Positions 598 through 62,628 of a stretch of DNA of 64,000 nt are shown here, piece by piece (position 1 is the stretch's first letter; the number at the start of each line of letters is the position of its first letter). Made by a program: the position numbers and the translations under genes. Under the pieces are notes generated by a model. That model saw nothing but the letters and a program-made list of their open reading frames with translations, was not told the DNA's origin and did not search any database. This DNA is from Escherichia phage UGJNEcP1. The stretch lies in the sequence record OV754623, one strand, 5' to 3'.

Positions 598-616
598 AGG
601 GAGACCGAAGTCTCCC
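598..616 (-). terminator. intrinsic terminator hairpin with UUCG tetraloop after gene 32
   Basis: minus strand reads GGGAGAC-UUCG-GUCUCCC followed by UUUUGAG, immediately 3' of gene 32 stop. Confidence 0.6.
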
Positions 617-622
617 GATTTA

Positions 623-1525
623 TTATAGACCAGCTAACAGGTCATCGAGGTCACCATCATCAGAGGATGAGGTAGAGCTCATGAAGTCATCTTCAGTTTT
701 TGCAGAACTAAAGGCTTCCATGTCTTTATCAAAATCGTCAAGGTCAGAAGCAACTTTATCTGCAACAGAAGCTGCGGCAGCTGCTGCACCGCCCAGAGCG
801 GCAGTACCAAGAACCTTAGCGAAAGATTCATTTAATTTTTCAAAGGATTTGAACTGGTCTTTAGCCGTCAAAGTGGTAAGGTCTACCATCTGGTCATATA
901 GTTCTTTCTGGAATGCTTCATCATTAATACGAGGAATTTCAGATTGACCCAAGAATTTAGATTCGTCATAGTTGCTAAAACCAGAAACCTGCTTAGCTTT
1001 CAGAACGAAGTTAGCACCTTCAAATGGACAAGTAACATCAACTGGAGTTTCACCCATTTCGGTATCAACTGCAATCATTGCATTGATTTTGTCCCAAATC
1101 TTTTTACCGAAACGATATTTAAATACTTTACCTTCGTTATCTGGAGCTTGAGGGTCTTTAACAACCAGAATATTAGCCCAATAAGAAGTTTTACGTTTCA
1201 GTTGAGAATATTCAGTTTTGTTGGTATTGTACAGGTCATTTTTAATAATGTACTGACATACAGGACAAGAGTCGTAATCCCCATGTGTAGAAGAGCAATT
1301 TTCAATATACCATTTACCATTTTTCTTGAAACCGTGGTTAACAAGAATTGCAAATGGTAGTGCATCATCAGTTTTTGCTGGCAAGAAACGAATTACCGCT
1401 TGACCATTACCTGATGCATCTAGCTTCAGCTTCCATTCGCCTTTATCTTCTGAAGAGAAACCTTTGTTACCGTTCAGTTTAGCCATTTGAGCAGCGAGGT
1501 CAGCAGTAGATTTACGTTTAAACAT
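623..1525 (-). CDS. 32: single-stranded DNA-binding protein gp32
   Basis: 300 aa; N-terminus MFKRKSTA...[27 protein letters not shown] matches T4 gp32 as I recall it; acidic Ser/Asp-rich C-terminal tail. Confidence 0.95.
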
Positions 1526-1612
1526 TATATTTACCTTTATTTAGATTATTTAATTTATTTACAGTTGGTTGCTACGACACTTATACCTCGTAGCTGGTAT
1601 GTTTTATTTATA
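1526..1612 (-). promoter_or_regulatory. gene 32 leader: AU-rich (U)UAAA repeat operator, hairpin/pseudoknot candidate, and a late-promoter motif
   Basis: minus strand upstream of the AUG reads TAAATAAATTAAATAATCTAAATAAAGG; hairpin GCTACGA-loop-TCGTAGC at 1571-1594; TATAAATA on minus strand at 1605-1612. Confidence 0.5.
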
Positions 1613-1641
1613 AAGTAATTTTAACACGCAAGAAATAAAGC

Positions 1642-2295
1642 TTAATACTTACATGATTTGATTGTTTCTATGAACAATTTCTTAGCAGCATTTCCATCGA
1701 TTTGAAGTATTTTTCGATATGCCTTTAATTTGGTAGAATAATTTTGCCAGACTAAATTGTCGGTAAGTTCGTCATGCTTATCTATAATATTCAAGAATGA
1801 ATCTAACAACAAGAAGGTTTCAAATGAAATTATATTGCTTTGTAGCAATTTAAATATGTAGCTCGACTGAACTTTATTATTATAATCAAATATCTCTTGA
1901 AGCGCACTAACTTCCACTTTCTTACTGAAATAGTAGATGTTACGTACGTCTTCAGCAAACGTCTCCTTGGCTTGTTTGAGACGTCCAATGTATTCCCTAT
2001 AGAAAACTAATGCATCAGCGTCTGATATCTCACCAATCCATGCGTCTTGGTTAGCAACTAAGTTGCTTATGAATATCAAGGTGAGTTCCTTCAATTTATA
2101 TTTCTCTGCTAGTTTTTCAAAGAAATATTTATCTCGGCGTTTTTGATACGCATTATCCGAAACACGCATGCACCAGTTATATTTGATTACGTCATACCGA
2201 CCACCAAAATGGTTTTTGCACATCAAGTATAGTTTATATACTGATTTTCCATTAATATAACGTTCTCCATCAGGAGGCATGCGTATTTTAATCAT
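1642..2295 (-). CDS. 59: helicase loader gp59
   Basis: 217 aa, same length as T4 gp59; position between 33-side and 32. Confidence 0.85.
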   Translation of the reverse strand: MIKIRMPPDGERYINGKSVYKLYLMCKNHFGGRYDVIKYNWCMRVSDNAYQKRRDKYFFEKLAEKYKLKELTLIFISNLVANQDAWIGEISDADALVFYREYIGRLKQAKETFAEDVRNIYYFSKKVEVSALQEIFDYNNKVQSSYIFKLLQSNIISFETFLLLDSFLNIIDKHDELTDNLVWQNYSTKLKAYRKILQIDGNAAKKLFIETIKSCKY

Positions 2296-2971
2296 ATTTC
2301 CATCCGGGCCATTTTGAAGATTTAAGTCTATATGTAACTAAAGACGCAGAAATATTAAAAACATTTGAAACTTCTTTACACGAGGCGTATTTTATACCAT
2401 CAATAGTTATAGGTTTTTGTTTTTTAATAGTCCTTTCTCTAGAATGTGGTTTTGAATTTGCTATTCTAAGAGCTTCTTTAGTGGAATCAGGCATCGCCTT
2501 ATTCGTTTTTCTCCCTTTTCGGACTTTACTCAAGGCCAATTTGTGAGCTTCAGATAGTTTCTTACCCTTATTAGGGGACGGTATTTTTCTTTCTAGTCTT
2601 GTTTTAGATACTTTAGCCTTAGTCTCTTCAGATCTAGGTTTACCTAATTTAGAAAGTGAAATGGCCCTTTTAGCTTCATCACTTTGTTTTTTGCCAGGAC
2701 CACCTTTACCACCGGGAACTAAGTTATAAGTATCATCTCGCAAAACAAAATCTTCATTAACCAATTCTGCTTCTTTTTTATAGGCGTCCTTGTCATTATC
2801 ATATTCATAAAGAATTTCGGTATAAAAATTTTTTAGTCCATATTTAGCTTTGGCCGCTAATATAGCGCGGCCTGATCCAATATACCAATCTTTCTCTTTA
2901 TGTTTTTTATGTACGCCTATATAAATTTTACCATTTATTTTATTGGTAGTTTTATACACAACGTATTTCAT
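2288..2971 (-). CDS. GIY-YIG homing endonuclease (Seg-like free-standing HEG)
   Basis: N-terminal YVVYKTTNKINGKIYIGV GIY-YIG motif; Lys/Arg-rich C-terminal DNA-binding region with NUMOD-like repeats; 8-nt overlap with 59 and 4-nt overlap with 33. Confidence 0.8.
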   Translation of the reverse strand: MKYVVYKTTNKINGKIYIGVHKKHKEKDWYIGSGRAILAAKAKYGLKNFYTEILYEYDNDKDAYKKEAELVNEDFVLRDDTYNLVPGGKGGPGKKQSDEAKRAISLSKLGKPRSEETKAKVSKTRLERKIPSPNKGKKLSEAHKLALSKVRKGRKTNKAMPDSTKEALRIANSKPHSRERTIKKQKPITIDGIKYASCKEVSNVFNISASLVTYRLKSSKWPGWKYD

Positions 2972-3306
2972 AATAAGAAATCTAACGTATTAGTTTTTTC
3001 ACCACGAGCAACTGATGGGCGAAGCATGTTTTCGTCAATTGCTTCGCTTGTAATTTTTTCAACAATTCCTGTAGGAATAAATTTAGCAAATTGTGTTTCT
3101 GGAATAGAATTTTCTTCCAAGAAAGCAGTTGTTGCTTCTAAATAAGACATACCAAATTGTTCAACCATGGATTCAATAATGAATCCGTTTTCTTGCCGGT
3201 CAAGCAATTTAGCGATATCATCTTTATCGTGTTTTACTGCTAATTCTTGTTCAGATAAACCGGCCTCATCAACCGGTTTAATATCACTTAGTGAAAACTG
3301 TGTCAT
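2968..3306 (-). CDS. 33: late transcription co-activator gp33
   Basis: 112 aa; MTQFSL...ENGFIIE...EATTAFLEENSIPETQFAKFIP matches T4 gp33 as recalled. Confidence 0.9.
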   Translation of the reverse strand: MTQFSLSDIKPVDEAGLSEQELAVKHDKDDIAKLLDRQENGFIIESMVEQFGMSYLEATTAFLEENSIPETQFAKFIPTGIVEKITSEAIDENMLRPSVARGEKTNTLDFLL

Positions 3307-3553
3307 AAAGCTCGACTACCTCTTCGTTTTCAGCTTCAAATTGGTCACGAGCATCTTTATGATAAAGAGCTAACAAACGATTAAACATTTTTCCATCAAC
3401 GCCAAGCTCTTCTTTAGCACGAGTACGAATGTCTTTAATCAGTTCATTATAACCAGAAATTTTAAGTTTGTTATCGGAAGCTTCCTTGACTAGTTTAGCC
3501 AGTTCTTCACCATGCACATCTTGATTAAATTCAACTGCTTCTTTCTTAGCCAT
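3284..3553 (-). CDS. dsbA: late-transcription dsDNA-binding protein DsbA
   Basis: ORF 3284..3571; likely start at internal MAKKE giving about 89 aa as in T4 DsbA; synteny between 33 and rnh. Confidence 0.75.
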   Translation of the reverse strand: MAKKEAVEFNQDVHGEELAKLVKEASDNKLKISGYNELIKDIRTRAKEELGVDGKMFNRLLALYHKDARDQFEAENEEVVELYDTVFTK

Positions 3554-3560
3554 GTTTACC

Positions 3561-4478
3561 TCAGAATTCATTAATTACACTTGTTAATTTAGAAAGACCA
3601 GATTTTACAAAATATGAATAAATCTTGCCTTTAGGTTGTTGTTTATATGAGTTATAATACTCTATAATGGTTGAAGCAATATTATCAGGGATATAATCAA
3701 AATCAATGAGAACCAAATTTTCTTGATACCGTTTATATTCTTCTGCACTTAATAATACTTCAGCTTGAGAACGGTCGTTAGCAATTGCTTCAATAATTGA
3801 TGTTTTCATGCTCGGAGTTCGTTCACCTTCAACTCGAGTAAACCAGAAGTCACCACGAACTCGAACAGATGCGACACCATCCTTACGGTCACCTTTAAGA
3901 ATTTTAGTCATGCAATCAATTTCAGCAGAACCATTCTTAATTTTAACCCATTTTTTCTGTGGTGGCGACCACTGTTTAACGTTAGGATATTTGTGTAATT
4001 GTGTAAAGTCACCATCTGATGCAACAATACATACCTTATGTCCAGCTAATGACAAATATTTGGTTAATACACCAATATGGTCATCCGCTTCATACTTGTC
4101 AATATCCATTACAACGTATGGCATGTATTTCTTAATCTCATCAACAACTTGATGGAGTGCAGTAAAATATCCTTCCCAATCCCACTTTGAAGCTTCACGA
4201 TCGGTTTTACGATTTTTCTTGTAATAGTAAGCAAAGTCACGTCGCCAATAACCTGAAGTAGCATTATCCATACACAATACAAATTTTGTATAGCCTTGCT
4301 TACGGAACATCACTACGTTTTTACGAATTGAATTCAAGATTACATGGCGAACCATCGGAACAGTAATTTTATCGCCGTCTTCAAAGTTGTTTAATGCAGC
4401 TGCCAATGCAATGTTACTAAAGTCGGCAAGTGCAATACCTTCTTTGTAATCTTCATCCAACATCATTTCTAAATCCAT
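3561..4478 (-). CDS. rnh: RNase H (FEN-family 5'-3' exonuclease)
   Basis: 305 aa, same as T4 RNase H; synteny adjacent to gene 34. Confidence 0.9.
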   Translation of the reverse strand: MDLEMMLDEDYKEGIALADFSNIALAAALNNFEDGDKITVPMVRHVILNSIRKNVVMFRKQGYTKFVLCMDNATSGYWRRDFAYYYKKNRKTDREASKWDWEGYFTALHQVVDEIKKYMPYVVMDIDKYEADDHIGVLTKYLSLAGHKVCIVASDGDFTQLHKYPNVKQWSPPQKKWVKIKNGSAEIDCMTKILKGDRKDGVASVRVRGDFWFTRVEGERTPSMKTSIIEAIANDRSQAEVLLSAEEYKRYQENLVLIDFDYIPDNIASTIIEYYNSYKQQPKGKIYSYFVKSGLSKLTSVINEF

Positions 4479-4581: not shown

Positions 4582-7500
4582 ATGGCCGACATCAAACGTA
4601 AGTTCAGAGCCGAAGACGGTCTGGACGCCGGTGGCGACAAGATTGTTAACGTAGCATTAGCCGACCGTACAGTAGGTACAGATGGCGTAAACGTTGACTT
4701 CCTGGTACAAGAAAACACCGTTCAAGTATATGATTCTACGCGTGGATATAACAAAGGATTTGTTGTTCTTTATGACAACCGTTTATATCAAGCAATAAAT
4801 GATATCGTGTCTCCTTCAGGGGCATTTAACCTTTTACAATGGCGTGCAGTTCGTACCGATGCACAATGGATAACTGTCGCTTCTGGGACTTATCAACTTT
4901 CTTCAGGTGAATCTATTTCGGTTAACACTGGTGCTGGCAATGATATGGTTTTCACATTGCCAAATGCGCCGGTTGATGGTGATACTGTTGTTTTGGCTGA
5001 TATTGGTGGAAGAACCGGGACAGTTAAAGTACAGATTAACGCGTCTGTGCAGAGTATTTTAAACTTTAGAGGTGAACAAGTTCGTACAGTTTTAATGACG
5101 CGCCCACGTTCACAACTATTGTTTGTGTTTAGTAATCGCTTGTGGCAGATGTATATCATTGATTATGGTAAAGAATCAATCACTGTTACACCTGCGACAC
5201 CATATCAAGCACAAGCAAATGATTTTATCGTTCGTCGTTTTACTAGTGCAGCACCAATCAACATTACACTTCCACGTAATGCTAACAATGGCGATATAAT
5301 CACCCTAGTCGATTTAGATAAATTAAACCCACTGTATCATACAATTGTTAAAACATTTGATGATACAACGTCTATTGGTGAAGTCGGGACTCATATTGCC
5401 GAAGGCAGAAATGACTCTGACGCGTTTTTTGTTTTTGATGCTTCAAATAGTTTATGGCGTATATGGGAAGGCGACCAGAAATCGCGTCTTCGTATTATCC
5501 GTGCGGATTCAAATATTCGTCCAAATGAAGAAGTTCTTATTTTTGGCACAAATAACGCTACATCCGGAACTATTAATCTTACGCTGCCTACAGGAATTTT
5601 GAGTGGTGACACTGTTAAAATTTCAATGAACTACATGCGTAAAGGCCAAACAGTAAAAATTAAAGCTGCCGAAGGTGATACAATTGCTTCTTCTGTTGCA
5701 TTGCTTCAGTTCCCTAAACGTTCTGAATATCCACCTGATGCTCAATGGGTCTCTGTTACTGAACTAGAATTCAATGGCACTACTTCGTATGTTCCTGTAT
5801 TAGAATTAGCATATATTGAAGATACCGATTCCGACACTCATTATTGGGTTGTGCAACAGAATGTCCCTACGGTAGAACGTGTTGATGCTGGAACTGATGC
5901 TACACGAGCTCGTTTAGGTGTTATTGCTCTTGCTACTCAAGCGCAAGCAAATGTTGATTTAGAGAATACTCCAGCTAAAGAAGTGGCTATTACTCCTGAA
6001 ACGTTGGCAAATCGTACAGCAACTGAAGCTCGACGTGGTATCGCTAAAATTGCTACAACAGCACAAGTTAACCAGAATTCCACAGCAACATTTGTGGACG
6101 ATACTATTGTTACGCCTAAAAAACTAAATGAGCGTACAGCAACTGAAACTCGTCGTGGTCTTGCTGAAATTGCTACTCAGGCTGAAACCGATGCTGGTCT
6201 TGACGACACAACGATTATTACACCTAAGAAATTGCAGGCACGTCAGGGTTCTGAAACACTATCTGGTATAGTTAAATATGTATCAACTACTTCTGCTACT
6301 CCTGCTGAAACTCGTGGGGCAGCAGGCACTAACGTTTATAATAAAACCGTAAATAATTTAACTATTTCCCCTAAAGCCCTTGACCAATATAAAGCAACTT
6401 ATGCTCAACAAGGTGCAGTAATTTTAGCTGTTGATAGTGAAGTAATTGCTGGACAATCTCAAGCAGGTTATTCTCACGCTGTAGTAACTCCTGAAACACT
6501 ACATAAGAAAACTTCTACTGATGGACGTATTGGTTTAATTGAAATTGCTACGCAAGCAGAAACTAATACTGGGACTGATTATACACGTGCAGTAACGCCT
6601 AAGACGTTAAATGATAGGAAAGCTACGGAAGGAATATCCGGCATAGCCGAACTTGCTACGCAAGTTGAATTTGATACTGGAACTGATGATACTCGTATCT
6701 CGACTCCACTGAAAATTAAAACTCATTTTGATTCTTCTGACCGTACCAGTGTTAATTCTGATTCCGGACTTATTGAAGAAGGAACCTTGTGGAACCATTA
6801 TACTCTTGATATTTCTAAAGCAAATGAAACACAACGTGGTACACTTCGCGTAGCGACCCAGGCAGAATCTAATGCAGGAACTTTAGATGATGTTCTTATT
6901 ACTCCTAAAAAGCTTTTAGGGACTAAGTCCACTGAAACGTCTGAAGGCGTAATTAAGGTTGCTACTCGGGCTGAAACTGTAACAGGAACTTCTGCTAATA
7001 CTGCTGTATCTCCTAAGAATTTAAAATGGATTGTCCAGAACGAACCAACATGGGCTGCTACTACGGCAATTCGCGGATTCGTTAAAACTTCATCCGGTTC
7101 TATTACATTTGTTGGTAATGATACAGTTGGTTCAACACAACCTTTAGAATCATATGAGAAAAATAGCTATGCAGTATCACCATATGAATTAAACCGTGTA
7201 CTTGCTAACTATTTACCATTAAAAGCAAAAGCTGCTGACGCAAATTTATTAGATGGCCTAGATTCATCTCAGTTCATTCGTAGGGACATTGCACAGACGG
7301 TTAATGGTTCACTAACCTTAACCCAACAAACGAATCTGAGTGGCCCTCTTGTATCATCTAGTACCGCTACGTTTGGTGGATCAGTTTCGGCAAATAGTAC
7401 ATTAACTATTTCTAATACTGGAACGGCAACTCGTCTGATTTTTGAAAAAGGACCTCAGACTGGAACTAACCCAGTACAGACGATGACTATCAGAGTTTGG

Positions 7501-8457
7501 GGAAATCAGTTTGGTGGTGGTTCAGATACAACACGTTCTACCGTATTTGAAGTTGGCGATGAAACGTCTAATCACTTTTATTCTCAACGTAATAAAGCTG
7601 GTAATATAACGTTTAGCATTAATGGTACTGTAATGCCAATAAATGTTAACGCTTCGGGTTCATTGAATGCGAATGGCGTAGCAACATTTGGTAGTTCAGT
7701 TACTGCTAATGGCGAATTCATCAGCAAGTCTGCAAATGCTTTCAGAGCAATAAACGGTGATTACGGATTCTTTATTCGTAATGATGCTGCTAATACCTAT
7801 TTTATGCTCACTGCATCTGGTGATCAGACTGGCGGATTTAATGGATTACGTCCTTTGGCTATTAATAATGCATCTGGTCAAGTAACGATTGGTGAAAGCT
7901 TAATCATTGCCAAAGGTGCTACTATAAATTCAGGTGGTTTAACTGTTAACTCGAGAATTCGTTCTCAGGGTTCTAAAACTGCTGATTTATACACTCGTGC
8001 TCCTACTGCTGATACAGTCGGGTTCTGGTCAGTTGACATTAACGATTCAGCCACTTATAACCAATTCCCGGGTTATTTTAAAATGGTTGAAAAAACTAAT
8101 GAAGTGTCTGGACTTCCGTACTTAGAACGTGGTGAAGAAGTTAAATCCCCTGGTACTTTGACTCAGTTTGGTAATACGCTTGATTCTCTTTACCAAGATT
8201 GGATTACTTATCCAACGACACCGGAAGCGCGTACCACTCGCTGGACTCGTACATGGCAGAAAACTAAAAATTCTTGGTCAAGTTTTGTTCAGGTATTTGA
8301 TGGTGGAAACCCTCCTCAACCTTCTGATATTGGTGCTTTACCTTCTGATAATGCAACAATCGGAAACTTGACAATAAGGGATTTCTTAAGGATTGGTAAC
8401 GTCCGCATTATTCCAGACCCTGTGAATAAATCTGTTAAATTCGAGTGGATTGAATAA
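4582..8457 (+). CDS. 34: long tail fibre proximal subunit gp34
   Basis: 1291 aa (T4 gp34 about 1289 aa); internal repeats of a TPKKL/ATQAET motif; late promoter upstream; first gene of the 34-38 operon. Confidence 0.95.
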   Translation: MADIKRKFRAEDGLDAGGDKIVNVALADRTVGTDGVNVDFLVQENTVQVYDSTRGYNKGFVVLYDNRLYQAINDIVSPSGAFNLLQWRAVRTDAQWITVASGTYQLSSGESISVNTGAGNDMVFTLPNAPVDGDTVVLADIGGRTGTVKVQINASVQSILNFRGEQVRTVLMTRPRSQLLFVFSNRLWQMYIIDYGKESITVTPATPYQAQANDFIVRRFTSAAPINITLPRNANNGDIITLVDLDKLNPLYHTIVKTFDDTTSIGEVGTHIAEGRNDSDAFFVFDASNSLWRIWEGDQKSRLRIIRADSNIRPNEEVLIFGTNNATSGTINLTLPTGILSGDTVKISMNYMRKGQTVKIKAAEGDTIASSVALLQFPKRSEYPPDAQWVSVTELEFNGTTSYVPVLELAYIEDTDSDTHYWVVQQNVPTVERVDAGTDATRARLGVIALATQAQANVDLENTPAKEVAITPETLANRTATEARRGIAKIATTAQVNQNSTATFVDDTIVTPKKLNERTATETRRGLAEIATQAETDAGLDDTTIITPKKLQARQGSETLSGIVKYVSTTSATPAETRGAAGTNVYNKTVNNLTISPKALDQYKATYAQQGAVILAVDSEVIAGQSQAGYSHAVVTPETLHKKTSTDGRIGLIEIATQAETNTGTDYTRAVTPKTLNDRKATEGISGIAELATQVEFDTGTDDTRISTPLKIKTHFDSSDRTSVNSDSGLIEEGTLWNHYTLDISKANETQRGTLRVATQAESNAGTLDDVLITPKKLLGTKSTETSEGVIKVATRAETVTGTSANTAVSPKNLKWIVQNEPTWAATTAIRGFVKTSSGSITFVGNDTVGSTQPLESYEKNSYAVSPYELNRVLANYLPLKAKAADANLLDGLDSSQFIRRDIAQTVNGSLTLTQQTNLSGPLVSSSTATFGGSVSANSTLTISNTGTATRLIFEKGPQTGTNPVQTMTIRVWGNQFGGGSDTTRSTVFEVGDETSNHFYSQRNKAGNITFSINGTVMPINVNASGSLNANGVATFGSSVTANGEFISKSANAFRAINGDYGFFIRNDAANTYFMLTASGDQTGGFNGLRPLAINNASGQVTIGESLIIAKGATINSGGLTVNSRIRSQGSKTADLYTRAPTADTVGFWSVDINDSATYNQFPGYFKMVEKTNEVSGLPYLERGEEVKSPGTLTQFGNTLDSLYQDWITYPTTPEARTTRWTRTWQKTKNSWSSFVQVFDGGNPPQPSDIGALPSDNATIGNLTIRDFLRIGNVRIIPDPVNKSVKFEWIE

Positions 8458-8465
8458 GAGGTATT

Positions 8466-9593
8466 ATGGAAAAATTTATGGCTAAGTTTGGACAAGGATA
8501 CGTCCAAACGCCATTTTTATCGGAAAGCAATTCAGTACGATTTAAATTAAGCATAGCGGGCTCTTGCCCGCTATCAACATCTCCTGCTTATATTAAGTTC
8601 CAGGATAATCCACTTGGGTCTCAGGTTTTTTCCGTTGGATTAAACGTTCGTGTAATAAACCCTACAACAGGTACAGTAGTTGAATCTAAGACATATAATT
8701 TCTCTACTGAAAACGACACCACGTCAAGTGCATTTGTTACTTTCATGGACACATATGCTTCAAATTTTATATTTGCTCTTGTTACTAACGCTAAAACAAA
8801 CTTTCCACCTGAAGTTCTTGCATGGTTTAATAAAGCCGGAAGTTCTGCTATTCCATTAGCTCAACAAGTTTTAAATATAGTGGACATTTCTTATTCGGCA
8901 TTTTATATTTCTGGTAAGAATGCTATAGCACTAGAACATATTAAGTATAGTAATAAGAAAACTTCAACCGACTATAGTACACCACTTGATGTTGTGTATG
9001 ACACAATCGATGATATCGGTGCTACCGGCTTCCCTAGTCGTACGTATGAATCGTCAGACACATTTTTATCTGCCATTGGAGGTACTAATAATGAAATTAA
9101 AAGGATGCCTACAACATCCCTTATTACACCTCTCGCTGGGTATAAATTGAAGCCTGGAGATTTCCTTTATATGAAATTCCAACTAATGGCTGATGCCGAT
9201 TTGTTAGCACAAGGGACGACACGACTTTCTATTCGTTTCTTTAAATCTCCTTCTACTTCACCTATTTCATTTAAGGATACAAACTTTGATGGGGCTGCAG
9301 GTGAATGGAAGATATATGAAGACTACATAGAAATTCCTGCTGGTGCTGACGGGTTCACGATTTATTGTTATCGTACAGCTCCAGTCGGGCAAGGTGGATT
9401 AAGAAACGTTATATTCACTGAAGTATCATGTAATGGAAGCGTTTCAAAACCTGCCGAGTTTGGTATAAATGGTATTCGTGTAAATTATGTTTCAGAATCT
9501 TTAAGTGCCCCAGACATAATGACATTACCTACTCAATCTTCAACTGATACTGGTAAGGTATTTGGACAAGAATTTAAAGAAGCATCAGAATAA
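8466..9593 (+). CDS. 35: long tail fibre hinge connector gp35
   Basis: 375 aa (T4 gp35 372 aa); synteny. Confidence 0.85.
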   Translation: MEKFMAKFGQGYVQTPFLSESNSVRFKLSIAGSCPLSTSPAYIKFQDNPLGSQVFSVGLNVRVINPTTGTVVESKTYNFSTENDTTSSAFVTFMDTYASNFIFALVTNAKTNFPPEVLAWFNKAGSSAIPLAQQVLNIVDISYSAFYISGKNAIALEHIKYSNKKTSTDYSTPLDVVYDTIDDIGATGFPSRTYESSDTFLSAIGGTNNEIKRMPTTSLITPLAGYKLKPGDFLYMKFQLMADADLLAQGTTRLSIRFFKSPSTSPISFKDTNFDGAAGEWKIYEDYIEIPAGADGFTIYCYRTAPVGQGGLRNVIFTEVSCNGSVSKPAEFGINGIRVNYVSESLSAPDIMTLPTQSSTDTGKVFGQEFKEASE

Positions 9594-9598
9594 ATTTA

Positions 9599-9616
9599 GG
9601 GAGACTTCGGTCTCCC
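9599..9616 (+). terminator. hairpin with UUCG tetraloop plus U-tract after gene 35
   Basis: GGGAGAC-UUCG-GUCUCCC followed by AUUUUUG on plus strand. Confidence 0.55.
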
Positions 9617-9623
9617 ATTTTTG

Positions 9624-9631
9624 TATAAATA
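9624..9631 (+). promoter_or_regulatory. T4 late promoter TATAAATA for gene 36
   Basis: exact TATAAATA 25 nt upstream of gene 36 AUG, preceded by the hairpin. Confidence 0.7.
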
Positions 9632-9655
9632 TGGTATACATATAAGGAGACAACT

Positions 9656-10321
9656 ATGGCCGATTTAAAAGCTGGTAGTACAACTGGCGGTGCTGTTATA
9701 TGGCATCAAGGTAATTTCCCTTTAATGCCGGCAGGTGATGACGTCCTGTATAAAACGTTTAAACTCTATTCAGAATATAATAAGCCACAAGCGGCTGATA
9801 ACGATTTCGTTTCTAAAGCTAATGGTGGTACGTATGCCGCTCGAGTAACATTTAATAATGGTGTGCAAGTACCTTATGCCGTAAATAACACAAATCAAAG
9901 TGGTATTTATCCTGGCAATGGCGATGCTGCTACTTTTGATACAGCAAATATTGATATTGTTTCATGGTATGGCATTGGTTTTAAATCATCACAAGGATCT
10001 GCAGGTAGAACTGTTGTTGTTAACACTCGTACTGGTGATATCAGCACTAAAGGTGGTATTTATGCAACTGGTCCTGTCCGTTCTAACGCTACTGCTCCTA
10101 TAGCAGCGAATGACCTTACTAGAAAGGACTATGTTGACGGACGAATAAATATTGTTACGGATAACGCAAATTCCCGTGTATTGCGTAAAGGCGATACCAT
10201 GACTGGTACTTTAACAGCACCAAACTTTTTCTCACAGAATCCGGCGTCTGAGGCTAATCATGTTCCTCGTTTCGACCAGATTGTAATTAAAGATTCTGTT
10301 CAAGATTTCGGCTATTATTAA
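9656..10321 (+). CDS. 36: long tail fibre distal connector gp36
   Basis: 221 aa, same as T4 gp36; SD AAGGAG upstream. Confidence 0.9.
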
Positions 10322-10329
10322 GAGGACTT

Positions 10330-13300
10330 ATGGCTACATTAAAACAGATACAATTTAAAAGAAGCAAAGTGGCAGGAGTTAATCCTACTGCAGCACAATT
10401 AGCCGAAGGCGAATTAGCGATAAACTTAAAAGATCGAACTCTTTTTACTAAAGATGACCTCGGTAATATTATTAGCCTAGGCTTTGCTAAGGGTGGGGAT
10501 ATTAACGGTAATGTAACTCAAACTGGCGATTATTTACAAAACGGCACGTATAATCTCAATGGAAATCAGTTTGTTTATGCAGGAAAATACATTGAATTTT
10601 TACCTAAAACCACTGGAAATGGCGCTTGGGCTAACCAACATTCGAATAAAGCCCCTATCTTTACAGATTTAAGTTCAACTACTTCTGTTTCAGAATACCA
10701 TCCACTGATTAAACAACGCTATAAAGATGGAACTTTTTCTGCTGGTACATTAGTAAACGAAGGTAGTTTTAAATTCCATTATATTGATGAAACCGGGACT
10801 TCAAAATACTGGACTTTTAATCGAAACGGTAATTTTCAAGTTGATTCCGGAAGTTTATTAGTATCTAATGGATATTTAGTTACTCAAAGTAATATTGAAA
10901 CTAAAGCTGGTTCTTTAATTGGTCCTAAAGTTATTACCAAAAATATCAATGTGAGCACTAAATCTTGGGACACTAATATTGATACTGCATATGATTTAGT
11001 TTCATTACCGACTTGGCAGTATACTCCAACCGAAACAGATTTGGATACTAATGGTATAAACTACCTTCGTAAATTCCGCGGACATGTTTCTTCTGCTATT
11101 TTCCATGAAGTTGCTGATGCTCGTTCAGGTAAACCACAGAATATTTCGTATTGGACAGGACGTAATGCTGAAGTTTATCAATGGTCTTATACCACAGATG
11201 GGCGTATGTCTGTTGCTAATTCGATAGGTATAGGTCTTGCTGATGTTGGTGACCAAGGACGTTATCCATTGGTTTCGTTTGGTAAAGGTATTGCAATTGG
11301 TGACAATGATACTGGTATTAAATGGGTTCGTGACGGGGTTATCGATTTAGTTGCGAATGGTATTTCTGCCGGCACTATTCTTAATAACGGTATTAACAGT
11401 ACTAAAAAATTGATGGTTGGTTATAGTCGAGATTCTGGTTCTACTTGGGATTACCCAAATAACAACCAAGCAATGTTTACTGCGCGTACCGATGTTGATG
11501 GTAATAATAACGGTGACGGTCAGACTCATATCGGTTATAGTAGCAATGCCAAGATGTATCACTATTTCCGTGGCACTGGTCGTATGTCCGTTAGTATGGG
11601 TGATGGGCTTCTTGTTGAGCCTGGCATTTTAGATATTAAAACCAGTTCAAATAGGGTTGCTATTAGAGCAGATGGTACATTTGACTCAACCCAACGTATT
11701 TCAATGCGTACTGGGTTATTTTTATCAGGTGATGACAATACCAATGCTTTGACATTTAAAGCGCCTACAGGCGTTGACGGGACAAAAACCATTAACTGGG
11801 ATGCAGGTACTCGTAATGGTCAGAATAAAAATACTGTAACCATTAAAGCATGGGGTAACTCATTTAACGCTGAAAAGGGTAATAGAGAAACTGTATTTGA
11901 AGTATCAGATTCACAAGGTTATTATTTTTATGCTCAACGTACCAACCCGGCTTCTGGTGAAACAGTAGGTCCTGTTAACTTTAAATTTAACGGAACTGTC
12001 GAAACAGGCCATATCATAGGCCTTGGTAATATAAGTGCCTCCGGTACAGGTTCTTTTGGTGGCAATGTTACCATGACTAATGGCCTGTTTGTCCAAGGTG
12101 GTTCTTCTATTACAGGCCAAGTTAAAATTGGTGGAACAGCTGATGCATTAAGAATTTGGAATGCTGAATACGGTGCTATTTTCCGTCGTTCTGAAGATAA
12201 GCTTTATATTATTCCAACCCCGCAGAATGCTGGCGAATCAGGTGGTATTTCTAATTTACGTCCGTTCTATATTACATTAAGTACCGGTAAAGTTTCTATG
12301 GACCATGATGTAGATATCGGTGGTGGAATATTTAAAGTAGAAACTAGTGGAACAACAGCAGGGAAACGTATTACAGTTAATGCGGCGTCAGATGCTATTA
12401 GAATAAATGCCCCAACGCAAGAGTCTTCTAACTTTATTCAAGGACGTAAAGCAGATGTTACAAAATGGTATTTAGGTATTGGCGATGGCGGCAACGTCGT
12501 TCGTATGCATAGTTACACCTATTCACATGGTATTGCACTGAATTCTGATACTGTCGATATTACTAAACCATTAAAAGTTGGTAATGCTCAATTCGGTACT
12601 GATGGTAATATCACTGGTGGTTCTGGTAATTTTGCTAACTTGAATACCACAATAAATAACCTTAAGACAGATATTGTCTCAAGTTATCCAATTGGTGCTC
12701 CGATTCCTTGGCCTACTGATACACCTCCTGAAGGTTATGCCATAATGGAAGGCCAGACGTTTGATACTGACTTGTATCCTAAGTTAGCTGCGGTGTATCC
12801 TTCCGGCGCTCTGCCTGATATGCGCGGTCAAACTATCAAGGGTAAACCATCCGGGCGTGCTGTATTAAGTACAGAAGCAGACGGTGTTAAGTCACATAGC
12901 CATAGTGCAAGTGCGTCAAGCACGGATTTAGGTACTAAGACCACTTCTAGTTTTGATTACGGTAGCAAAACGACTTCAAGCTTTGATTATGGTACTAAAA
13001 CCAGTAATACTACTGGTAACCATAACCATACAGTGAGTGGTAATACTAGTGCCGCTGGTAATCACCAGCACTCACAGACAGGCCCAAGAGGACCTAGTAA
13101 CCAACCGACCGGGATATTTCCTAATGGGGCTACTCTAATTAGTGGGACTCAGGTTATTAGTTTTGGCCTAAGCAACGGTATCGTGCCTGGTACAAGCCAA
13201 TATATTGCAAAGTCGTCAACAGAAGGTAACCATACCCATAGTTGGTCAGGAACTACTAGCGCTACTGGTAACCATGCCCATACGGTAGGTATTGGTGCTC

Positions 13301-13443
13301 ATACCCATTCGGTAGGTATTGGTGCTCATTCTCATACTGTTGCAATTGGTTCCCATGGGCATACAATAACTGTAAATGCCACAGGAAATACAGAAAACAC
13401 TGTTAAAAACGTTGCTTTTAACTATATCGTTCGTTTAGCATAA
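10330..13443 (+). CDS. 37: long tail fibre distal subunit gp37 with His-x-His tip motifs
   Basis: 1037 aa (T4 gp37 1026 aa); C-terminal GNHTHSWSG...[23 protein letters not shown] HxH repeats. Confidence 0.95.
12931..13002 (+). repeat. tandem 30-nt direct repeat within gene 37 encoding (T)KTTSSFDYG twice
   Basis: actaagaccacttctagttttgattacggt followed by agcaaaacgacttcaagctttgattatggt; peptide [25 protein letters not shown]. Confidence 0.7.
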
Positions 13444-13449
13444 GGAGAA

Positions 13450-13463
13450 GGGACTTCGGTCCC
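13450..13463 (+). promoter_or_regulatory. UUCG-tetraloop hairpin between the gene 38 Shine-Dalgarno and AUG (also a possible gene 37 terminator)
   Basis: AAGGAG at 13442-13447, hairpin GGGAC-UUCG-GUCCC, then UUUUUAUAAU-AUG at 13474. Confidence 0.55.
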
Positions 13464-13473
13464 TTTTTATAAT

Positions 13474-14025: not shown

Positions 14026-14034
14026 GGAGGTATT

Positions 14035-15232: not shown

Positions 15233-15467
15233 ATTCTAGGGCATTAAGAGCCCGTTCTTCAGTATAGTCAGAACCAAAGACGATAGTGATTTCACCAGGC
15301 TTCATGTGATTGAAATCAACACTAAAAGGAATACGAGAACATACTTCGTCTGCCATATCTGCAACAACACTACGATACACTTCTCGGTTAACCTGATAAA
15401 GCTCTGCAAGTTCTTCGCATCGAATAACAAGTTCAGTGGCAGGATTTTCTTTGATTTTAGTAAGCAT
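15168..15467 (-). CDS. hypothetical early protein
   Basis: ORF 15168..15554; internal Met at MLTKIKE is the more likely start; acidic. Confidence 0.4.
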   Translation of the reverse strand: MLTKIKENPATELVIRCEELAELYQVNREVYRSVVADMADEVCSRIPFSVDFNHMKPGEITIVFGSDYTEERALNALEYEMSFFDIQDYIDSYKERYEP

Positions 15468-17479: not shown

Positions 17480-17518
17480 TTTATTTCTCCAATTTGGTTG
17501 TTTTGTTTTGATATGTCT

Positions 17519-17547
17519 ATAATACCATGTTTGAAGCAAAAGTAAAC
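17519..17547 (-). promoter_or_regulatory. early promoter for motA (GTTTAC, 17 nt, TATTAT)
   Basis: minus strand GTTTACTTTTGCTTCAAACATGGTATTAT, then GGAG SD and AUG. Confidence 0.55.
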
Positions 17548-17584
17548 TTTATTTTGGGCTCTTTTTCAAAAGCCCTGGTAAAAT

Positions 17585-17868: not shown

Positions 17869-17896
17869 TGTTTTCGTGAGAAAAAAATGCACAAAA

Positions 17897-17912
17897 GGGA
17901 GCTTCGGCTCCC
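17897..17912 (-). terminator. hairpin terminator after gene 52
   Basis: GGGAGC-loop-GCUCCC followed on the minus strand by UUUUGUGCAUUUUUUU. Confidence 0.5.
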
Positions 17913-17988
17913 TAATCATGTTTGTCTAACCAATACAGCCAAATCACTAGTGCAGCTATTGCACCGAGAAATCCTAAGGCTAGGGCAC

Positions 17989-19318: not shown

Positions 19319-19459
19319 TCACCATATTAATGAACGAATAACCATTATAACATCTGAAATGAAAAGCACTACTTGGATTAGTCCAAACATCACACCATAA
19401 TACAGAACCGTAAGCAACAACAAGAGCCCGAAGGCTCCTGCTAAGATTTTCTTAATCAT
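19319..19459 (-). CDS. small hydrophobic protein (52.1 position)
   Basis: 46-aa ORF below the 60-aa track cutoff: MIKKILAGAFGLLLLLTVLYYG...; overlaps neighbours out of frame. Confidence 0.3.
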   Translation of the reverse strand: MIKKILAGAFGLLLLLTVLYYGVMFGLIQVVLFISDVIMVIRSLIW

Positions 19460-21763: not shown

Positions 21764-21779
21764 GGGGACCGAAGTCCCC
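21764..21779 (-). terminator. UUCG-tetraloop hairpin terminator after rIIB
   Basis: minus strand GGGGAC-UUCG-GUCCCC followed by UUUUUUCUUUAG. Confidence 0.6.
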
Positions 21780-26387: not shown

Positions 26388-26405
26388 AAGCTCCCGAAGG
26401 AGCTT
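26388..26405 (-). terminator. UUCG-tetraloop hairpin at the 3' end of gene 39
   Basis: minus strand AAGCUCC-UUCG-GGAGCUU overlapping the gene 39 stop. Confidence 0.4.
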
Positions 26406-28221: not shown

Positions 28222-28271
28222 GTTGTCTCCTCGTTATGAAGGTATTCTATCATCCGAAATCTAAAGCAAAA

Positions 28272-28285
28272 AGGGCCGAAGCCCT
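28272..28285 (-). terminator. UUCG-tetraloop hairpin terminator
   Basis: minus strand AGGGC-UUCG-GCCCU followed by UUUUUGCUUUAG. Confidence 0.5.
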
Positions 28286-28728
28286 TATTTAAATTTAATT
28301 TTCTGAAGTGCATCAATTGCAGCTAAACGCCCTTGTTCACTTTTAACTGTAATGACCACATCGCCTGATACGATCACCGAACCATCAACAAATTCTATAG
28401 AGCCTTTTTTGAAATCGACAGCTGTATCTGGTTCCGGAACTTCTTCAAAGAATTTAAATTCTGCACCATAAATCAGAATATCACCTTGCATACTAATGAT
28501 TGTACGTCTAGGTCCATCGGTTTCAGCGGCAATCATTGAAACACCATAACCAATCATCTCTTCTACAATAAAATCTCTTGATAATAAAACTGTATGCAGA
28601 GTAGTGTTAAGACGTTTACCAGTTGTATTAAGAATTCTCAAGAAATTATCTTCTTGACCTTTGATAATACGATATTTCTTACCAACTTCAAAACCTTTAA
28701 AACCTTTAAAAGCCGTATTAAAAGCCAT
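28285..28728 (-). CDS. hypothetical protein (goF/39.x region)
   Basis: 147-aa ORF; no motif recognised. Confidence 0.45.
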   Translation of the reverse strand: MAFNTAFKGFKGFEVGKKYRIIKGQEDNFLRILNTTGKRLNTTLHTVLLSRDFIVEEMIGYGVSMIAAETDGPRRTIISMQGDILIYGAEFKFFEEVPEPDTAVDFKKGSIEFVDGSVIVSGDVVITVKSEQGRLAAIDALQKIKFK

Positions 28729-37634: not shown

Positions 37635-37712
37635 ATTGTTCTCCTCTTGAGTAAGTAAGAATATCTTAACACAGTTTTTAGCGGTTGTAAACTGTAGAAA
37701 CAAAAAAAAAAA

Positions 37713-37730
37713 GGAATCCCGAAGGATTCC
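37713..37730 (-). terminator. UUCG-tetraloop hairpin terminator after soc
   Basis: minus strand GGAAUCC-UUCG-GGAUUCC followed by a run of 11 U. Confidence 0.7.
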
Positions 37731-37738
37731 TAAATTAT

Positions 37739-43470: not shown

Positions 43471-43535
43471 AATGTTTTCCTCTTGGTTTGTGTAAGTGCA
43501 TCATATCATGCCTAGAGGAAGATGTAAACCCCGAA

Positions 43536-43553
43536 AGGAGACCGAAGTCTCCT
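43536..43553 (-). terminator. tetraloop hairpin after gene 41
   Basis: AGGAGAC-loop-GUCUCCU; U-tract on the plus side, GTTTAC promoter element follows on the minus side. Confidence 0.4.
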
Positions 43554-43558
43554 TTTTA

Positions 43559-45010: not shown

Positions 45011-45373
45011 TTAAAAGAATTTAAATTTTTTCTTGGCCCGTTCATTAAAAGCTTGTTGTACTTGCATTGTAACACATTTTTCAACATGTGGTGCAAGTTC
45101 TGCTTTTCTGTCCTGGTCAAGAACTGCAAAGTCCATTACGATTTTACCATCAACCCAGTCTAGTTTTGTAATATAGACTATATGATGGGAACCATCTTCA
45201 AGTGTAATCAGAATCTCTTGAATGACATTTTCCATTGCTGAACGGATAATTTTAAGAGATTCATTAAACACTCGTTCTTTGCGAATGTCTTCCCCTTCCG
45301 AAGAAGGGGATTCATCAACGATTTCTAGATTTAAATCATCGAGATTATTCATCGAAATCTTCCATTTCGTCAA
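45011..45373 (-). CDS. 40: gp40 candidate (head vertex assembly chaperone)
   Basis: 120 aa (T4 gp40 114 aa); synteny between 41 and uvsX. Confidence 0.55.
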   Translation of the reverse strand: MTKWKISMNNLDDLNLEIVDESPSSEGEDIRKERVFNESLKIIRSAMENVIQEILITLEDGSHHIVYITKLDWVDGKIVMDFAVLDQDRKAELAPHVEKCVTMQVQQAFNERAKKKFKFF

Positions 45374-55918: not shown

Positions 55919-55978
55919 TTAATTTCCTTTAGACGAGTTATTGTCTTTTGTTTGTTGATGAACTTATTATACTCCAAA

Positions 55979-55994
55979 TGGGACCGAAGTCCCA
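55979..55994 (-). terminator. UUCG-tetraloop hairpin between regA and gene 43
   Basis: minus strand UGGGAC-UUCG-GUCCCA followed by UUUGGAG and a TATAAT element. Confidence 0.45.
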
Positions 55995-55999
55995 TTGCT

Positions 56000-59131: not shown

Positions 59132-59332
59132 TTATTCGTAGAAGTCGGTAACTGTCCATGCGGAATTGCGATTAGACATTATTTTATTATACTCATCTTT
59201 AAAAGCAGATTTGAGCATTTGTTCAGTAACAATATGTTCTTCACCTGAAAACGTATTGGTCAAAACATATTTTTTAATTTCAGGGACAACGAGAAGATGT
59301 TGGCCAGTTGAATACTCCATGTTGTTCTCCAT
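59132..59332 (-). CDS. hypothetical small protein (45.2 position)
   Basis: 66-aa ORF. Confidence 0.45.
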   Translation of the reverse strand: MENNMEYSTGQHLLVVPEIKKYVLTNTFSGEEHIVTEQMLKSAFKDEYNKIMSNRNSAWTVTDFYE

Positions 59333-59374
59333 TTAATTTGATGTGGTCATTATAACCACATCGTGTTAAAGCGT

Positions 59375-61063: not shown

Positions 61064-61314
61064 ATGTATTCTCTTCGAATGAAGTCCTCTACATATTTTA
61101 ACATGTCATCTCTATCAGCAAAATATTCATCTAGTTCTGCATACATGACAACACCTGGTGCGTACTCACAGGTAACATACATTGTTCCAAAGAAACGAGG
61201 AGTTGTCTCCTCGTAATTCTCAGTCCATTCAACGATACCAATATAACCGTCACCAATACTAAATTCGTGACGATGGATTTCATAATCAGTCTTCGTCATT
61301 ATACGCATCCTCAA
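61060..61314 (-). CDS. hypothetical small protein (46.1 position)
   Basis: 84-aa ORF with ATGA overlap. Confidence 0.5.
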   Translation of the reverse strand: MRMRIMTKTDYEIHRHEFSIGDGYIGIVEWTENYEETTPRFFGTMYVTCEYAPGVVMYAELDEYFADRDDMLKYVEDFIRREYI

Positions 61315-61543
61315 TACACGCTTCGGCCATTTTAAGAATAGAGCCAGGAGTATCGTTGTCCATTATATTAAAGCTAAATTCAATAGCCCAGTCAGTGCAG
61401 ACATGAACTGCTTTAACTTCATTGCCTTCAACGCGTAATGGCTCAATCCAATACTTGATAGTGTTCTCGAATCCATCATCATCTTTAACGTCCATTTCAA
61501 CTTCAAGCCTGAGTCCAGCATTGTTAAATTCATCTAAAGTCAT
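61286..61543 (-). CDS. hypothetical small protein (46.2 position)
   Basis: 85-aa acidic ORF. Confidence 0.5.
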   Translation of the reverse strand: MTLDEFNNAGLRLEVEMDVKDDDGFENTIKYWIEPLRVEGNEVKAVHVCTDWAIEFSFNIMDNDTPGSILKMAEACIEDAYNDED

Positions 61544-62559
61544 TGTGTTGCCTCAACATAAAGTTCGTTGGAATATTTGACCAGCGCTTCTCTGTCTTCA
61601 TCTGAGATATCCGGAATCGCGTCAATATATTCTTTAATGATATCTTGAAGCGATTTAATCTCGATTTCCTGGTCGTCATCAGATTCAACACTGTTATCAA
61701 CTTTAGAAACCATGCGAAGAGAGTGAACTACTTTTTCAAGTTCAGATTCAAACTTAGTCAACTCTGAATCAATTTCTGATACTATAACACGTACGGCTAG
61801 ATTAGTATAATCAGAATAATTGATTTTGCCTTTAAACGGATAAGTGATTCGTCGATGCCATGTTGTTTCATTAGGAATAAATTCCATACGTTCAACATCA
61901 GTGTCAAATACCCAGAATCCGCGAGGGTCGTTCTCATCACCTGCAGTAAGGGTCCATGGTGTCCCAATATATTTGACGTTAGCAGCTTCAGAGATTGTGT
62001 GGAAGTGGCCAGAACAGACTTGTTTATAGGTCTTTAAGAAATCAGGTTCAAGCCCATGAGACTTCATTCCTTTATAGAAATAAAAGCCATTCAGTTCCCA
62101 GTGCCCAACACAATACGCTGCGGAAGAAGTCTTGATGTGCTCTAAGATTTCACCTGTATTTTCTTCACACATCCATGGAACGATATCAATCAGACATCCA
62201 TCAAAATCTACAGTAGTTGGATGCTCATAAATAGTAAAGTTTTCAAATTGAGTTAACAATTCAGAAACAGTGTTAGGTGTTATTGTATTCTTAAACGCCA
62301 TGTCATGGTTTCCTACCGTGACATGAACGTGAATGCCTGCTTTAGAAATCATATCAACGATTTCACGATTGAATTCCATCGTACGATGTGTTATTGCTTT
62401 ACGGACGTCAAACCAATCACCGCACTGAATCCAAGTTTTAATCCCGTGTTTCTTAGAGTATTCAATTGCTTGACGAATACCATCACGTTGAATGTCTTGA
62501 ACCCATGGGTCGTCTTGTTTGACTCCGATATGGAAGTCGCCTAAGTACAAAATTTTCAT
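61540..62559 (-). CDS. 47: recombination nuclease gp47 (Mre11/SbcD-like)
   Basis: 339 aa as T4 gp47; phosphoesterase motifs LGDFH, GDWFD, GNHD, GHFH. Confidence 0.93.
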   Translation of the reverse strand: MKILYLGDFHIGVKQDDPWVQDIQRDGIRQAIEYSKKHGIKTWIQCGDWFDVRKAITHRTMEFNREIVDMISKAGIHVHVTVGNHDMAFKNTITPNTVSELLTQFENFTIYEHPTTVDFDGCLIDIVPWMCEENTGEILEHIKTSSAAYCVGHWELNGFYFYKGMKSHGLEPDFLKTYKQVCSGHFHTISEAANVKYIGTPWTLTAGDENDPRGFWVFDTDVERMEFIPNETTWHRRITYPFKGKINYSDYTNLAVRVIVSEIDSELTKFESELEKVVHSLRMVSKVDNSVESDDDQEIEIKSLQDIIKEYIDAIPDISDEDREALVKYSNELYVEATQ

Positions 62560-62610
62560 ATTATTTCCTCATTAGTTAATTCATTTTATCATCCGTTTAT
62601 AAAGCAAAAA

Positions 62611-62628
62611 AGGAACTCCGAAGAGTTC
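62611..62628 (-). terminator. UUCG-tetraloop hairpin terminator upstream of gene 47
   Basis: minus strand GGAACUC-UUCG-GAGUUCC followed by UUUUUUGC. Confidence 0.6.

Follow-up and report, generated by a model that had tools for sequence, protein, structure and literature searches.

The stretch of DNA analysed here, 64,000 nucleotides (nt) of Escherichia phage UGJNEcP1 (sequence record OV754623; hereafter the window), is divided into a short minus-strand block, a late plus-strand block and a long early/middle minus-strand block of genes, between and behind which lie 13 short hairpins with a UUCG tetraloop (Table 1). These hairpins are very probably RNA-level elements of a T4-like phage: stable C(UUCG)G-capped stems right after stop codons, serving as terminators, as stability elements and as a bridge within a ribosome-binding site (RBS). 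The window is 99.97% identical to Escherichia phage UGJNEcP2 (Mosigvirus, RB69 group), from which it differs by 4 substitutions, one 12-bp insertion and one 1-bp insertion; a 6-kb piece of it is 100% identical to that phage and matches 200 T4-like phage records. Gene annotation was carried over from UGJNEcP2 to window coordinates, and all complete coding sequences translate cleanly. Coding density amounts to 94.6%, so that intergenic DNA is limited to 3,432 bases (5.4%).

The whole window was searched for 4-nt loops enclosed by a perfect stem of 5 bp or more. Among the 116 hairpins of this kind, 14 have the loop TTCG/CGAA, by far the commonest one, compared with 0.65 ± 0.81 (maximum 4) in 300 dinucleotide shuffles. 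For the hexamer CTTCGG/CCGAAG the count is 33, where shuffles give 15.9 ± 4.0, and the small intergenic fraction holds 11 of these 33 (P = 7e-7), all 11 forming hairpins. The bare tetramer TTCG is not enriched (506 observed, 501 expected), and the enrichment therefore belongs to the hairpin context. A tetramer at expectation is also what one would see if the recurrence were a chance by-product of base composition or codon usage, an explanation refuted by the shuffles, the intergenic concentration and the conservation in relatives described below, and left with a probability of essentially nil.

All eleven hairpins named in an initial annotation of this DNA, including those at 17897 and 43536 that it called similar, are present where it had placed them. 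The motif search it had proposed, run here, finds UUCG hairpins far beyond chance and adds two unlisted members (19424-19437 and 45291-45310), which brings the set to 13. Its description of 5-7 bp stems with a 4-nt loop was right for the loop (TTCG on one strand, 11/11) and too narrow for the stems: those of the eleven are Watson-Crick helices of 6-9 bp with 3-5 G-C pairs each. In the set as a whole, the closing pair is C-G in 13/13, as C(TTCG)G or its complement, the stems have 5-9 perfect pairs, and at least nine different stems are found within the window. Folding with ViennaRNA gave the expected hairpin in 13/13 cases, with nearest-neighbour predictions of -10 to -17 kcal/mol. No Rfam family reached its gathering score anywhere in the window on either strand. 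One further hairpin, GAGAA-TTCG-TTCTC in the middle of gene 34 (7953..7966, plus strand), was excluded from the set as probably due to chance, having an A-T closing pair and no gene end near it; its sequence is also present in T4 gene 34.

Table 1. Hairpins, associated promoter motifs and gene blocks of the window. Hairpins are named in the text by their first position (19424 by that of its core); the last column gives the relatives with a UUCG loop at the corresponding site.
Feature	Position	Strand	Sequence (hairpins as mRNA)	Context	UUCG in relatives
Hairpin	599..616	-	GGGAGAC-UUCG-GUCUCCC then UUUUGAGUAU	6 nt past gene 32 stop; -13.4 kcal/mol	19/26
Gene 32 (annotated hypothetical)	623-1525	-		upstream of 599 hairpin	
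Early-type -35 motif		-	GTTTAC	32 nt downstream of 599 hairpin	
Hairpin	9599..9616	+	GGGAGAC-UUCG-GUCUCCC then AUUUUUG	5 nt past gene 35 stop	19/28
Late promoter	9624-9631	+	TATAAATA	ahead of gene 36	
Hairpin	13448..13465	+	AAGGGAC-UUCG-GUCCCUU	between genes 37 and 38; -15.7 kcal/mol	
Hairpin	17896..17913	-	AGGGAGC-CGAA-GCUCCCU then UUUGUGCAUUUUUUU	early -35 and MotA-box motif 28-37 nt downstream	
Hairpin	19418..19443	-	GAGCC-UUCG-GGCUC (core 19424-19437)	extends to 11 bp with G-U pairs; -16.5 kcal/mol	3/3
Hairpin	21764..21779	-	GGGGAC-UUCG-GUCCCC then UUUUUUCUUU	5 nt past rIIB stop	16/23, at least 5 different stems
Hairpin	26388..26405	-	AAGCUCC-UUCG-GGAGCUU, tail CAUUUUAAUU (weak U-tract)	overlaps stop codon of topoisomerase gene 39	5/29
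Hairpin	28271..28286	-	AAGGGC-UUCG-GCCCUU then UUUGCUUUA	upstream of gene 39	
MotA box (middle-promoter motif)	28262-28268	-	TGCTTTA, 12 nt, TAGAAT	overlaps U-tract of 28271 hairpin; upstream of gene 39	
Hairpin	37712..37731	-	AGGAAUCC-UUCG-GGAUUCCU then 10-11 U	7 nt past stop of soc-like virion protein gene	27/35
Early-type promoter motif		-		20 nt downstream of 37712 hairpin	
Hairpin	43534..43555	-	AAAGGAGAC-UUCG-GUCUCCUUU	3 nt past gene 41 helicase stop; next bases CGGGG, no free U-tract	17/40, many with U-tracts
Hairpin	45291..45310	-	UCCCCUUC-UUCG-GAAGGGGA	34 nt past uvsX stop, in 5' part of overlapping gene 40; -17.3 kcal/mol	10/37
Hairpin	55977..55996	-	AAUGGGAC-UUCG-GUCCCAUU, tail UGGAGUAUAAU	3 nt past regA stop, upstream of DNA polymerase gene 43	7/26
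Hairpin	62611..62630	-	AGGAACUC-UUCG-GAGUUCCU then UUUUUGCUUUA	overlaps stop of small hypothetical gene	
MotA box	62600-62606	-	TGCTTTA, 11 nt, TAAAAT	overlaps U-tract of 62611 hairpin; upstream of gene 47	
Minus-strand gene block	1-4478	-		genes 32, 59, 33, dsbA, rnh	
Late block	4582-14697	+		tail-fibre genes 34-38, holin t	
Early/middle block	14698-64000	-		asiA, motA, 52, rIIB/A, 39 to dda, soc, 61, 41, uvsX, 43, regA, 62/44/45, 46/47, 55	

The mRNA strand reads UUCG in 12 of the 13 hairpins (one-sided P = 0.0017), the exception being 17896, and the start positions of all 13 range from 2 nt inside to 35 nt past a same-strand stop codon, in agreement with the placement at gene or operon ends given in the initial annotation. 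Eleven are intergenic, and the other two (19424 and 45291) lie 14 and 34 nt past a stop, inside the overlapping next gene. The same layout is seen in the whole genome of UGJNEcP2, in which 25 of 26 UUCG hairpins have an open reading frame (ORF) of at least 40 codons ending within 80 nt upstream in the UUCG orientation, and in T4, where this applies to 16 of 20. These regularities bear on the possibility that the elements act as DNA-level palindromes (a site of protein binding, a recombination or packaging signal, a nuclease target or a cruciform) and not as RNA. The stems are indeed perfect inverted repeats, several of them reported on both strands by the hairpin scan, and variants with an inverted loop, discussed below for 17896 and for the soc site (L182 versus L183), point to DNA-level hairpin events at such sites. 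Yet the loop lacks symmetry, it is the transcribed strand that has UUCG, in the proportions just given for the window and for UGJNEcP2, the U-tract stands on the sense side only, and the position is tied to stop codons. In addition some orthologous stems contain G-U pairs, for instance GAGCC/GGUUC at the gene 35 site, which on the other strand would be A-C mismatches; such pairs fit only sense-strand RNA pairing and argue for a role at the RNA level. A DNA-level function is therefore extremely unlikely.

As to termination, a site was called strictly terminator-like if its stem had 5 bp or more, including no fewer than 3 G-C pairs, its loop measured 3-8 nt, and an 8-nt window that began 0-2 nt past the stem contained 5 or more U; only sites within 60 nt downstream of a same-strand stop codon were counted. 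Eight sites of this kind were found: the seven intergenic ones are UUCG hairpins without exception (7/7), and the eighth lies inside gene 35. Because every strict sense-strand intergenic site is a UUCG hairpin, this appears to be the preferred terminator design in the window. A usable U-tract follows about eight of the 13 hairpins (599, 9599, 13448, 17896, 21764, 28271, 37712 and 62611), that of 26388 being weaker; all of the eight but 17896 combine a GC-rich stem and a U-tract as intrinsic terminators do, while 17896 and 26388 resemble these more loosely. The U-tracts listed in the initial annotation are thus present behind 598, 9599, 13450, 21764, 28272, 37713 and 62611 in its own numbering, weak behind 26388 (CAUUUUAAUU) and absent behind 55979 (AUUUGGAGUA). 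No terminator features are annotated in the T4 GenBank record. The U-tract of the soc terminator (37692-37711; poly-A on the plus strand) is one base longer, at position 37702, than its counterpart in UGJNEcP2, which may be either a homopolymer length polymorphism or a sequencing difference.

Many of the hairpins are directly followed by promoter motifs, which supports the remark of the initial annotation that several of them precede promoters directly: late, MotA-box or early-type motifs of the T4 kind lie within 40 nt downstream of seven hairpins, all of them motif matches and not mapped starts. The late promoter TATAAATA begins 8 nt after the 9599 hairpin, and nearly all relatives that carry UUCG at the gene 35 site continue with the same motif. 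The U-tracts after 28271 and 62611 are overlapped by TGCTTTA, the MotA-box core of the T4/RB69 middle-promoter consensus (PMC1524935), and early-type GTTTAC -35 elements with properly spaced -10 hexamers follow 599, 17896, 37712 and 43534. Apart from the UUCG hairpins, many early-type promoters of the window (GTTTAC, spacer, TATAGT/TATAAT) have an inverted repeat either around the -10 hexamer or containing it, e.g. TAGGACTATGTTATAGTAGTCCTA. Such promoters, all on the minus strand, are located at 42-104, 20104-20179, 20381-20630, 20895-20962, 29551-29607, 30133-30191, 41519-41581, 43041-43095 and 59321-59374; read-through RNA would fold there into hairpins of 9-14 bp, and the arrangement is also found downstream of gene 41 in T4 and other relatives.

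Four hairpins have no canonical U-tract. The one at 19424 lies behind an ac-like small gene (19452-19604), within the first codons of the overlapping next gene, and has a weak tail (UUGUUGUUGC). The one at 43534, initially listed as similar to the others, does have the UUCG hairpin and no U-tract, and adjoins an early-type promoter (GTTTACA, 17 nt spacer, TATGAT). At 45291 the next bases are AGACAU, and for this hairpin a role in RNA structure or stability is more likely than termination: at the corresponding place, 31-60 nt after the uvsX stop, 36 of 37 T4-like relatives have a hairpin, with varied stems and loops (UUCG 10, CUAGU 9, UCAG 6, others including GAAG and GAAA) and no U-tract, so that the site appears to be a conserved RNA structure within a coding region. 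The tail of 55977 (UGGAGUAUAAU) begins with UGGAGU, lacks a U-tract and contains a -10-like TATAAT. Downstream of it, on the minus strand, a separate hairpin AGAC-AAUAACUC-GUCU with UAAC in its loop (55931-55946) precedes the start codon of gene 43 (55918) by about 10 nt; it is similar to the translational operator of gp43 known from T4 and RB69 (PMC3014915).

For the comparison with other T4-like phages, about 190 IMG/VR loci around rIIB, gp32, gp41, gp45, gp39 and gp36 were collected, the upstream stop codon was located by tblastn and the next 100 nt were examined. The UUCG frequencies of Table 1 refer to the best hairpin per locus in non-identical relatives only; the gp45 search gave 2 loci, and consequently there is only one relative for the 62611 site. 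The 26388 site is lineage-variable, with UUCG in only 5 of 29 relatives. Stems change between lineages, as at the rIIB site (GGGGAC, AAGGGC, GGAGGC, GGGGC and AGGGAC), and the loops that replace UUCG are mostly near variants or other stable tetraloops (UCCG, UACG, UUUG, GAAA, GCAA). Among the GC-rich tetraloop hairpins of the enterobacterial T4-like loci UUCG is the top loop (61 of 298; GAAA 10), and among distant loci, with a gp32 about 40% identical, it again ranks first (16 of 174). Covariation was analysed on loop-anchored 22-mers, since a MAFFT alignment of the 50 nt after soc misaligned the shorter stems. At the soc and gene 32 sites 5 of 9 pairs have compensatory changes on both sides, the observed covariation score was reached by 0 of 500 shuffles, and 92-97% of the cells in these alignments are paired.

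The same data speak to the idea that the hairpins are copies of a mobile or duplicated repeat (of the REP or MITE type), whose uniformity would reflect common descent within the genome and not a selected design. The identical 18-mer GGGAGACTTCGGTCTCCC at 599 and 9599, and the recurrence of GGGAGAC and GGGAC stems elsewhere in UGJNEcP2, would suit such an origin. The flanks, however, are unrelated, with no similarity past the hairpin, the window alone holds the at least nine different stems mentioned above, and distant T4-like phages (gp32 down to 37% identical) have UUCG on other stems at the same junctions. The same stem-loop design is moreover found in at least 120 IMG/VR contigs, many of them unlike in context. 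We consider a mobile repeat very unlikely and regard the set as sharing a design, not as a homologous repeat family. The figure of at least 120 contigs comes from a scan of IMG/VR for TTAGGGAGC-NNNN-GCTCCCTTT, with stem and U-tail fixed so as to control for orientation; among the matches listed there are 73 distinct contexts, 55 of them with UUCG and 0 with CGAA, and on this account the preference for UUCG extends well beyond close relatives. The exact TTAGGGAGC-UUCG-GCTCCCTTT element (loci L223-L301) was likewise seen in at least 120 IMG/VR viral contigs, many of them in unlike contexts, and in several of its contexts it is preceded by a second UUCG hairpin (ACUAC-UUCG-GUAGU).

The hairpin at 17896 departs from the rule in its loop. 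The initial annotation had listed it as similar to the others, which is true of stem and loop size; UUCG, though, is found only on the antisense strand, and the mRNA strand reads CGAA, with the U-rich tail on that same strand. Three Mosigvirus contigs (L189 at 8094-8282, L193 and L156), 91-93% identical over the spacer, have the same stem with UUCG on the mRNA strand. As these relatives differ only in loop orientation, the window and UGJNEcP2 carry a clean inversion of the four loop bases; one IMG/VR contig shows a similar flip at its soc site (L182 versus L183). Loop inversions arise in quasi-palindromes by intramolecular template switching (Ripley-type), and inversions of hairpin loops are known in chloroplast spacers. 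To judge from its sequence, the 17896 flip looks like an event of this kind, and the soc variants match it as well; it would be a mutational side-phenomenon that gives no account of the element's function. A terminator for the opposite strand was considered and rejected, since the U-tract is on the minus strand and the relatives read UUCG on the minus strand. An unannotated 26-codon ORF lies next to the hairpin (17912-17992, minus strand; TTG start, MSALALGFLGAIAALVIWLYWLDKHD), encodes a hydrophobic peptide and overlaps the end of gene 52; judged by position only, it may correspond to motA.1 of T4, where the end of gene 52 is overlapped in the same manner. Because the hairpin begins inside the stop codon of this ORF, 17896 too obeys the stop-codon rule.

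Loop variation also bears on a further reading, that UUCG is kept because a particular protein of the phage or the host, such as a nuclease, antiterminator or RNA chaperone, recognises it, the hairpins being regulated switches. UUCG certainly outnumbers other stable tetraloops, both in the enterobacterial loci (61 of 298 against 10 for GAAA) and in the fixed-stem contexts listed (55/73), and a sensitivity to RegB or RNase E had been raised in the initial annotation. Orthologous sites nevertheless tolerate UCCG, UACG, UUUG, GAAA, GCAA and even the inverted CGAA, and a preference across many IMG/VR contigs in unlike contexts fits a generic thermodynamic or polymerase-level reason. RegB, for its part, is not guided to secondary structure but inhibited by it (PMC3014915), and no candidate binding protein was identified. 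Recognition by a specific factor is thus quite unlikely. The bolder version, in which a factor recognises UUCG and loop inversions such as that of 17896 are natural loss-of-function variants altering read-through into the motA region, is decidedly improbable; were it true, UUCG hairpins would be regulated elements and not passive ones.

The hairpin at 13448 stands apart by its position within an RBS. A GGAG Shine-Dalgarno sequence (13444-13447) directly follows the gene 37 stop, and the AUG of gene 38 is at 13474, so that the spacing of 26 nt in linear RNA falls to 8 nt when the hairpin is folded; only 1 of the 13 hairpins has this split layout. The T4 junction between genes 37 and 38 shows Shine-Dalgarno sequence, UUCG hairpin and AUG in the same arrangement, and in T4 gene 38 the structure cuts a 22-nt spacing to 5 nt, with destabilising mutations lowering translation (PMC3014915). 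Given this shared layout and loop, 13448 is taken as the orthologue of the known translation-enhancing hairpin; in addition to, or instead of, terminating, it would loop out 18 nt and bring the Shine-Dalgarno sequence to within 8 nt of the start codon. In its spacing reduction it is like the split RBSs known from genes 38 and 25 of T4 (Nivinskas et al. 1999; Malys and Nivinskas 2009; PMC3014915), from which it differs by a U run after the hairpin. As this run of five U follows a GC core, the hairpin may also terminate some gene 37 transcripts.

Taken as RNA elements, the hairpins suggest the following scheme, in which termination and exonuclease protection are inferred from sequence. Past the end of a cistron, the UUCG tetraloop would provide fast and tight nucleation of the hairpin and extra stability, so that a stem of 6-9 bp would suffice in a genome that is AT-rich and leaves very little room between genes. 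With a U-tract behind the hairpin, RNA polymerase would be released as at an intrinsic terminator; termination is probably partial, because genes of the T4 type are also read as long polycistronic RNAs. The 3' end left behind would be capped by the hairpin against 3'-to-5' exonucleases, of which RNase II, RNase R and PNPase act on T4 mRNA (PMC3014915). The hairpins at 19424, 43534, 45291 and 55977 would most likely be only structural or stability elements in polycistronic RNA. Many members would form compact terminator-promoter modules, in which the hairpin is followed by an early, middle or late promoter and, in two cases, the U-tract would double as the upstream MotA-box part. Stems with GGAG would be shielded from RegB; since several stems contain this motif and secondary structure protects GGAG from the enzyme (PMC3014915), the RegB idea of the initial annotation probably holds in the sense of protection by the hairpin.

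Several observations weigh against so uniform a scheme. The canonical U-tract is missing in four to five members (the four just named, with 26388 weak), several sites are not kept in all lineages (5/29 after gene 39 and 7/26 after regA), and 17896 persists with a CGAA loop on the mRNA strand that is not stabilising. The loop-anchored alignments used for covariation lean towards structure by construction, and no usable transcript 3'-end maps (Term-seq or ONT-cappable-seq) for this phage or T4 were found in the literature searched. The set is functionally mixed, 13448 being an RBS hairpin and four members having no U-tract. The reading of the initial annotation, a dedicated family of terminators or RNase-protective elements, is supported with these qualifications, and with the further one that the members share a design and are not homologous repeats.

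Some further features of the window lie outside the hairpin set. At the junction of the convergent genes for holin t (plus) and AsiA (minus), 14697/14698, there are 0 bases between the genes and no terminator-like hairpin was found nearby; late and early transcripts may therefore overlap in antisense. The 12-bp insertion relative to UGJNEcP2 (28706-28717) is in frame and creates a tandem near-duplicate (TTAAAAGCCGTA / TTAAAAGCCATA) in a hypothetical gene (28285-28728, minus strand), close to its 5' end. About 75 nt are near-duplicated at 17480-17584 and 17801-17875 (minus strand), upstream of motA and of the preceding small gene. Contained in the duplication are an early -35 element, a motif like the MotA box, a -10, an RBS and the first codons (ATGTCT).

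The meaning of these results is mostly one of annotation: in a Mosigvirus, too, terminators capped by cUUCGg are fused to promoters in the classical T4 manner, and the 13 elements are unannotated in the GenBank record of the near-identical UGJNEcP2. A hairpin at a gene end covers at least three roles here (terminator, stability or structure element, RBS bridge). The comparative tables record a loop that is kept on changing stems, with an occasional swap or inversion of the loop, and could be used for terminator design as a set of natural mutants; short UUCG hairpins could be useful as compact terminators in phage engineering.

Hairpins of this kind belong to the known repertoire of T4. The C(UUCG)G hairpins of T4 mRNA dealt with by Tuerk et al. 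in 1988 reportedly have extraordinary thermal stability and block reverse transcriptase. UUCG is likewise said, by d'Aubenton-Carafa et al. in 1990, to be an over-represented tetraloop in the intrinsic terminators of E. coli and its phages. CUUCGG hairpins are called abundant in T4 intergenic regions in a passage of PMC8948821 that cites Tuerk 1988. With the T4 elements those of the window share the hexamer, the complementary arms, the mainly intergenic position and the mRNA strand, and nothing essential differs. With intrinsic terminators they share the GC-rich stem, the 4-nt loop, the place downstream of a stop codon and, in part of the set, the U-tract; the 4-5 of 13 without a U-tract would not pass as such, and two lie inside an overlapping downstream ORF. 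Among the 20 UUCG hairpins of T4, direct orthologues are found after soc (15303-15324), at uvsX/40 (22329-22348) and at regA/43 (29952-29969), and the junctions of genes 35/36 and 37/38 have UUCG versions with imperfect stems. The T4 gene 32 terminator differs in having the loop CUAGA instead of UUCG, and T4 has no hairpin after gene 41, unlike the present phage, an RB69-like Mosigvirus of another genus. In the TransTerm predictions of Nolan et al. 2006, a terminator separates genes 35 and 36 in 6 of 6 T4-like genomes, RB69 included, and another follows gene 32 in 5 of 6 (PMC1524935). With the 1988 description for T4 and the 2006 predictions for T4-like phages, the phenomenon itself was on record, and what our analysis adds is small: an inventory of the hairpins in this phage, with two members more than first listed, their division by function, and the inverted loop at 17896.

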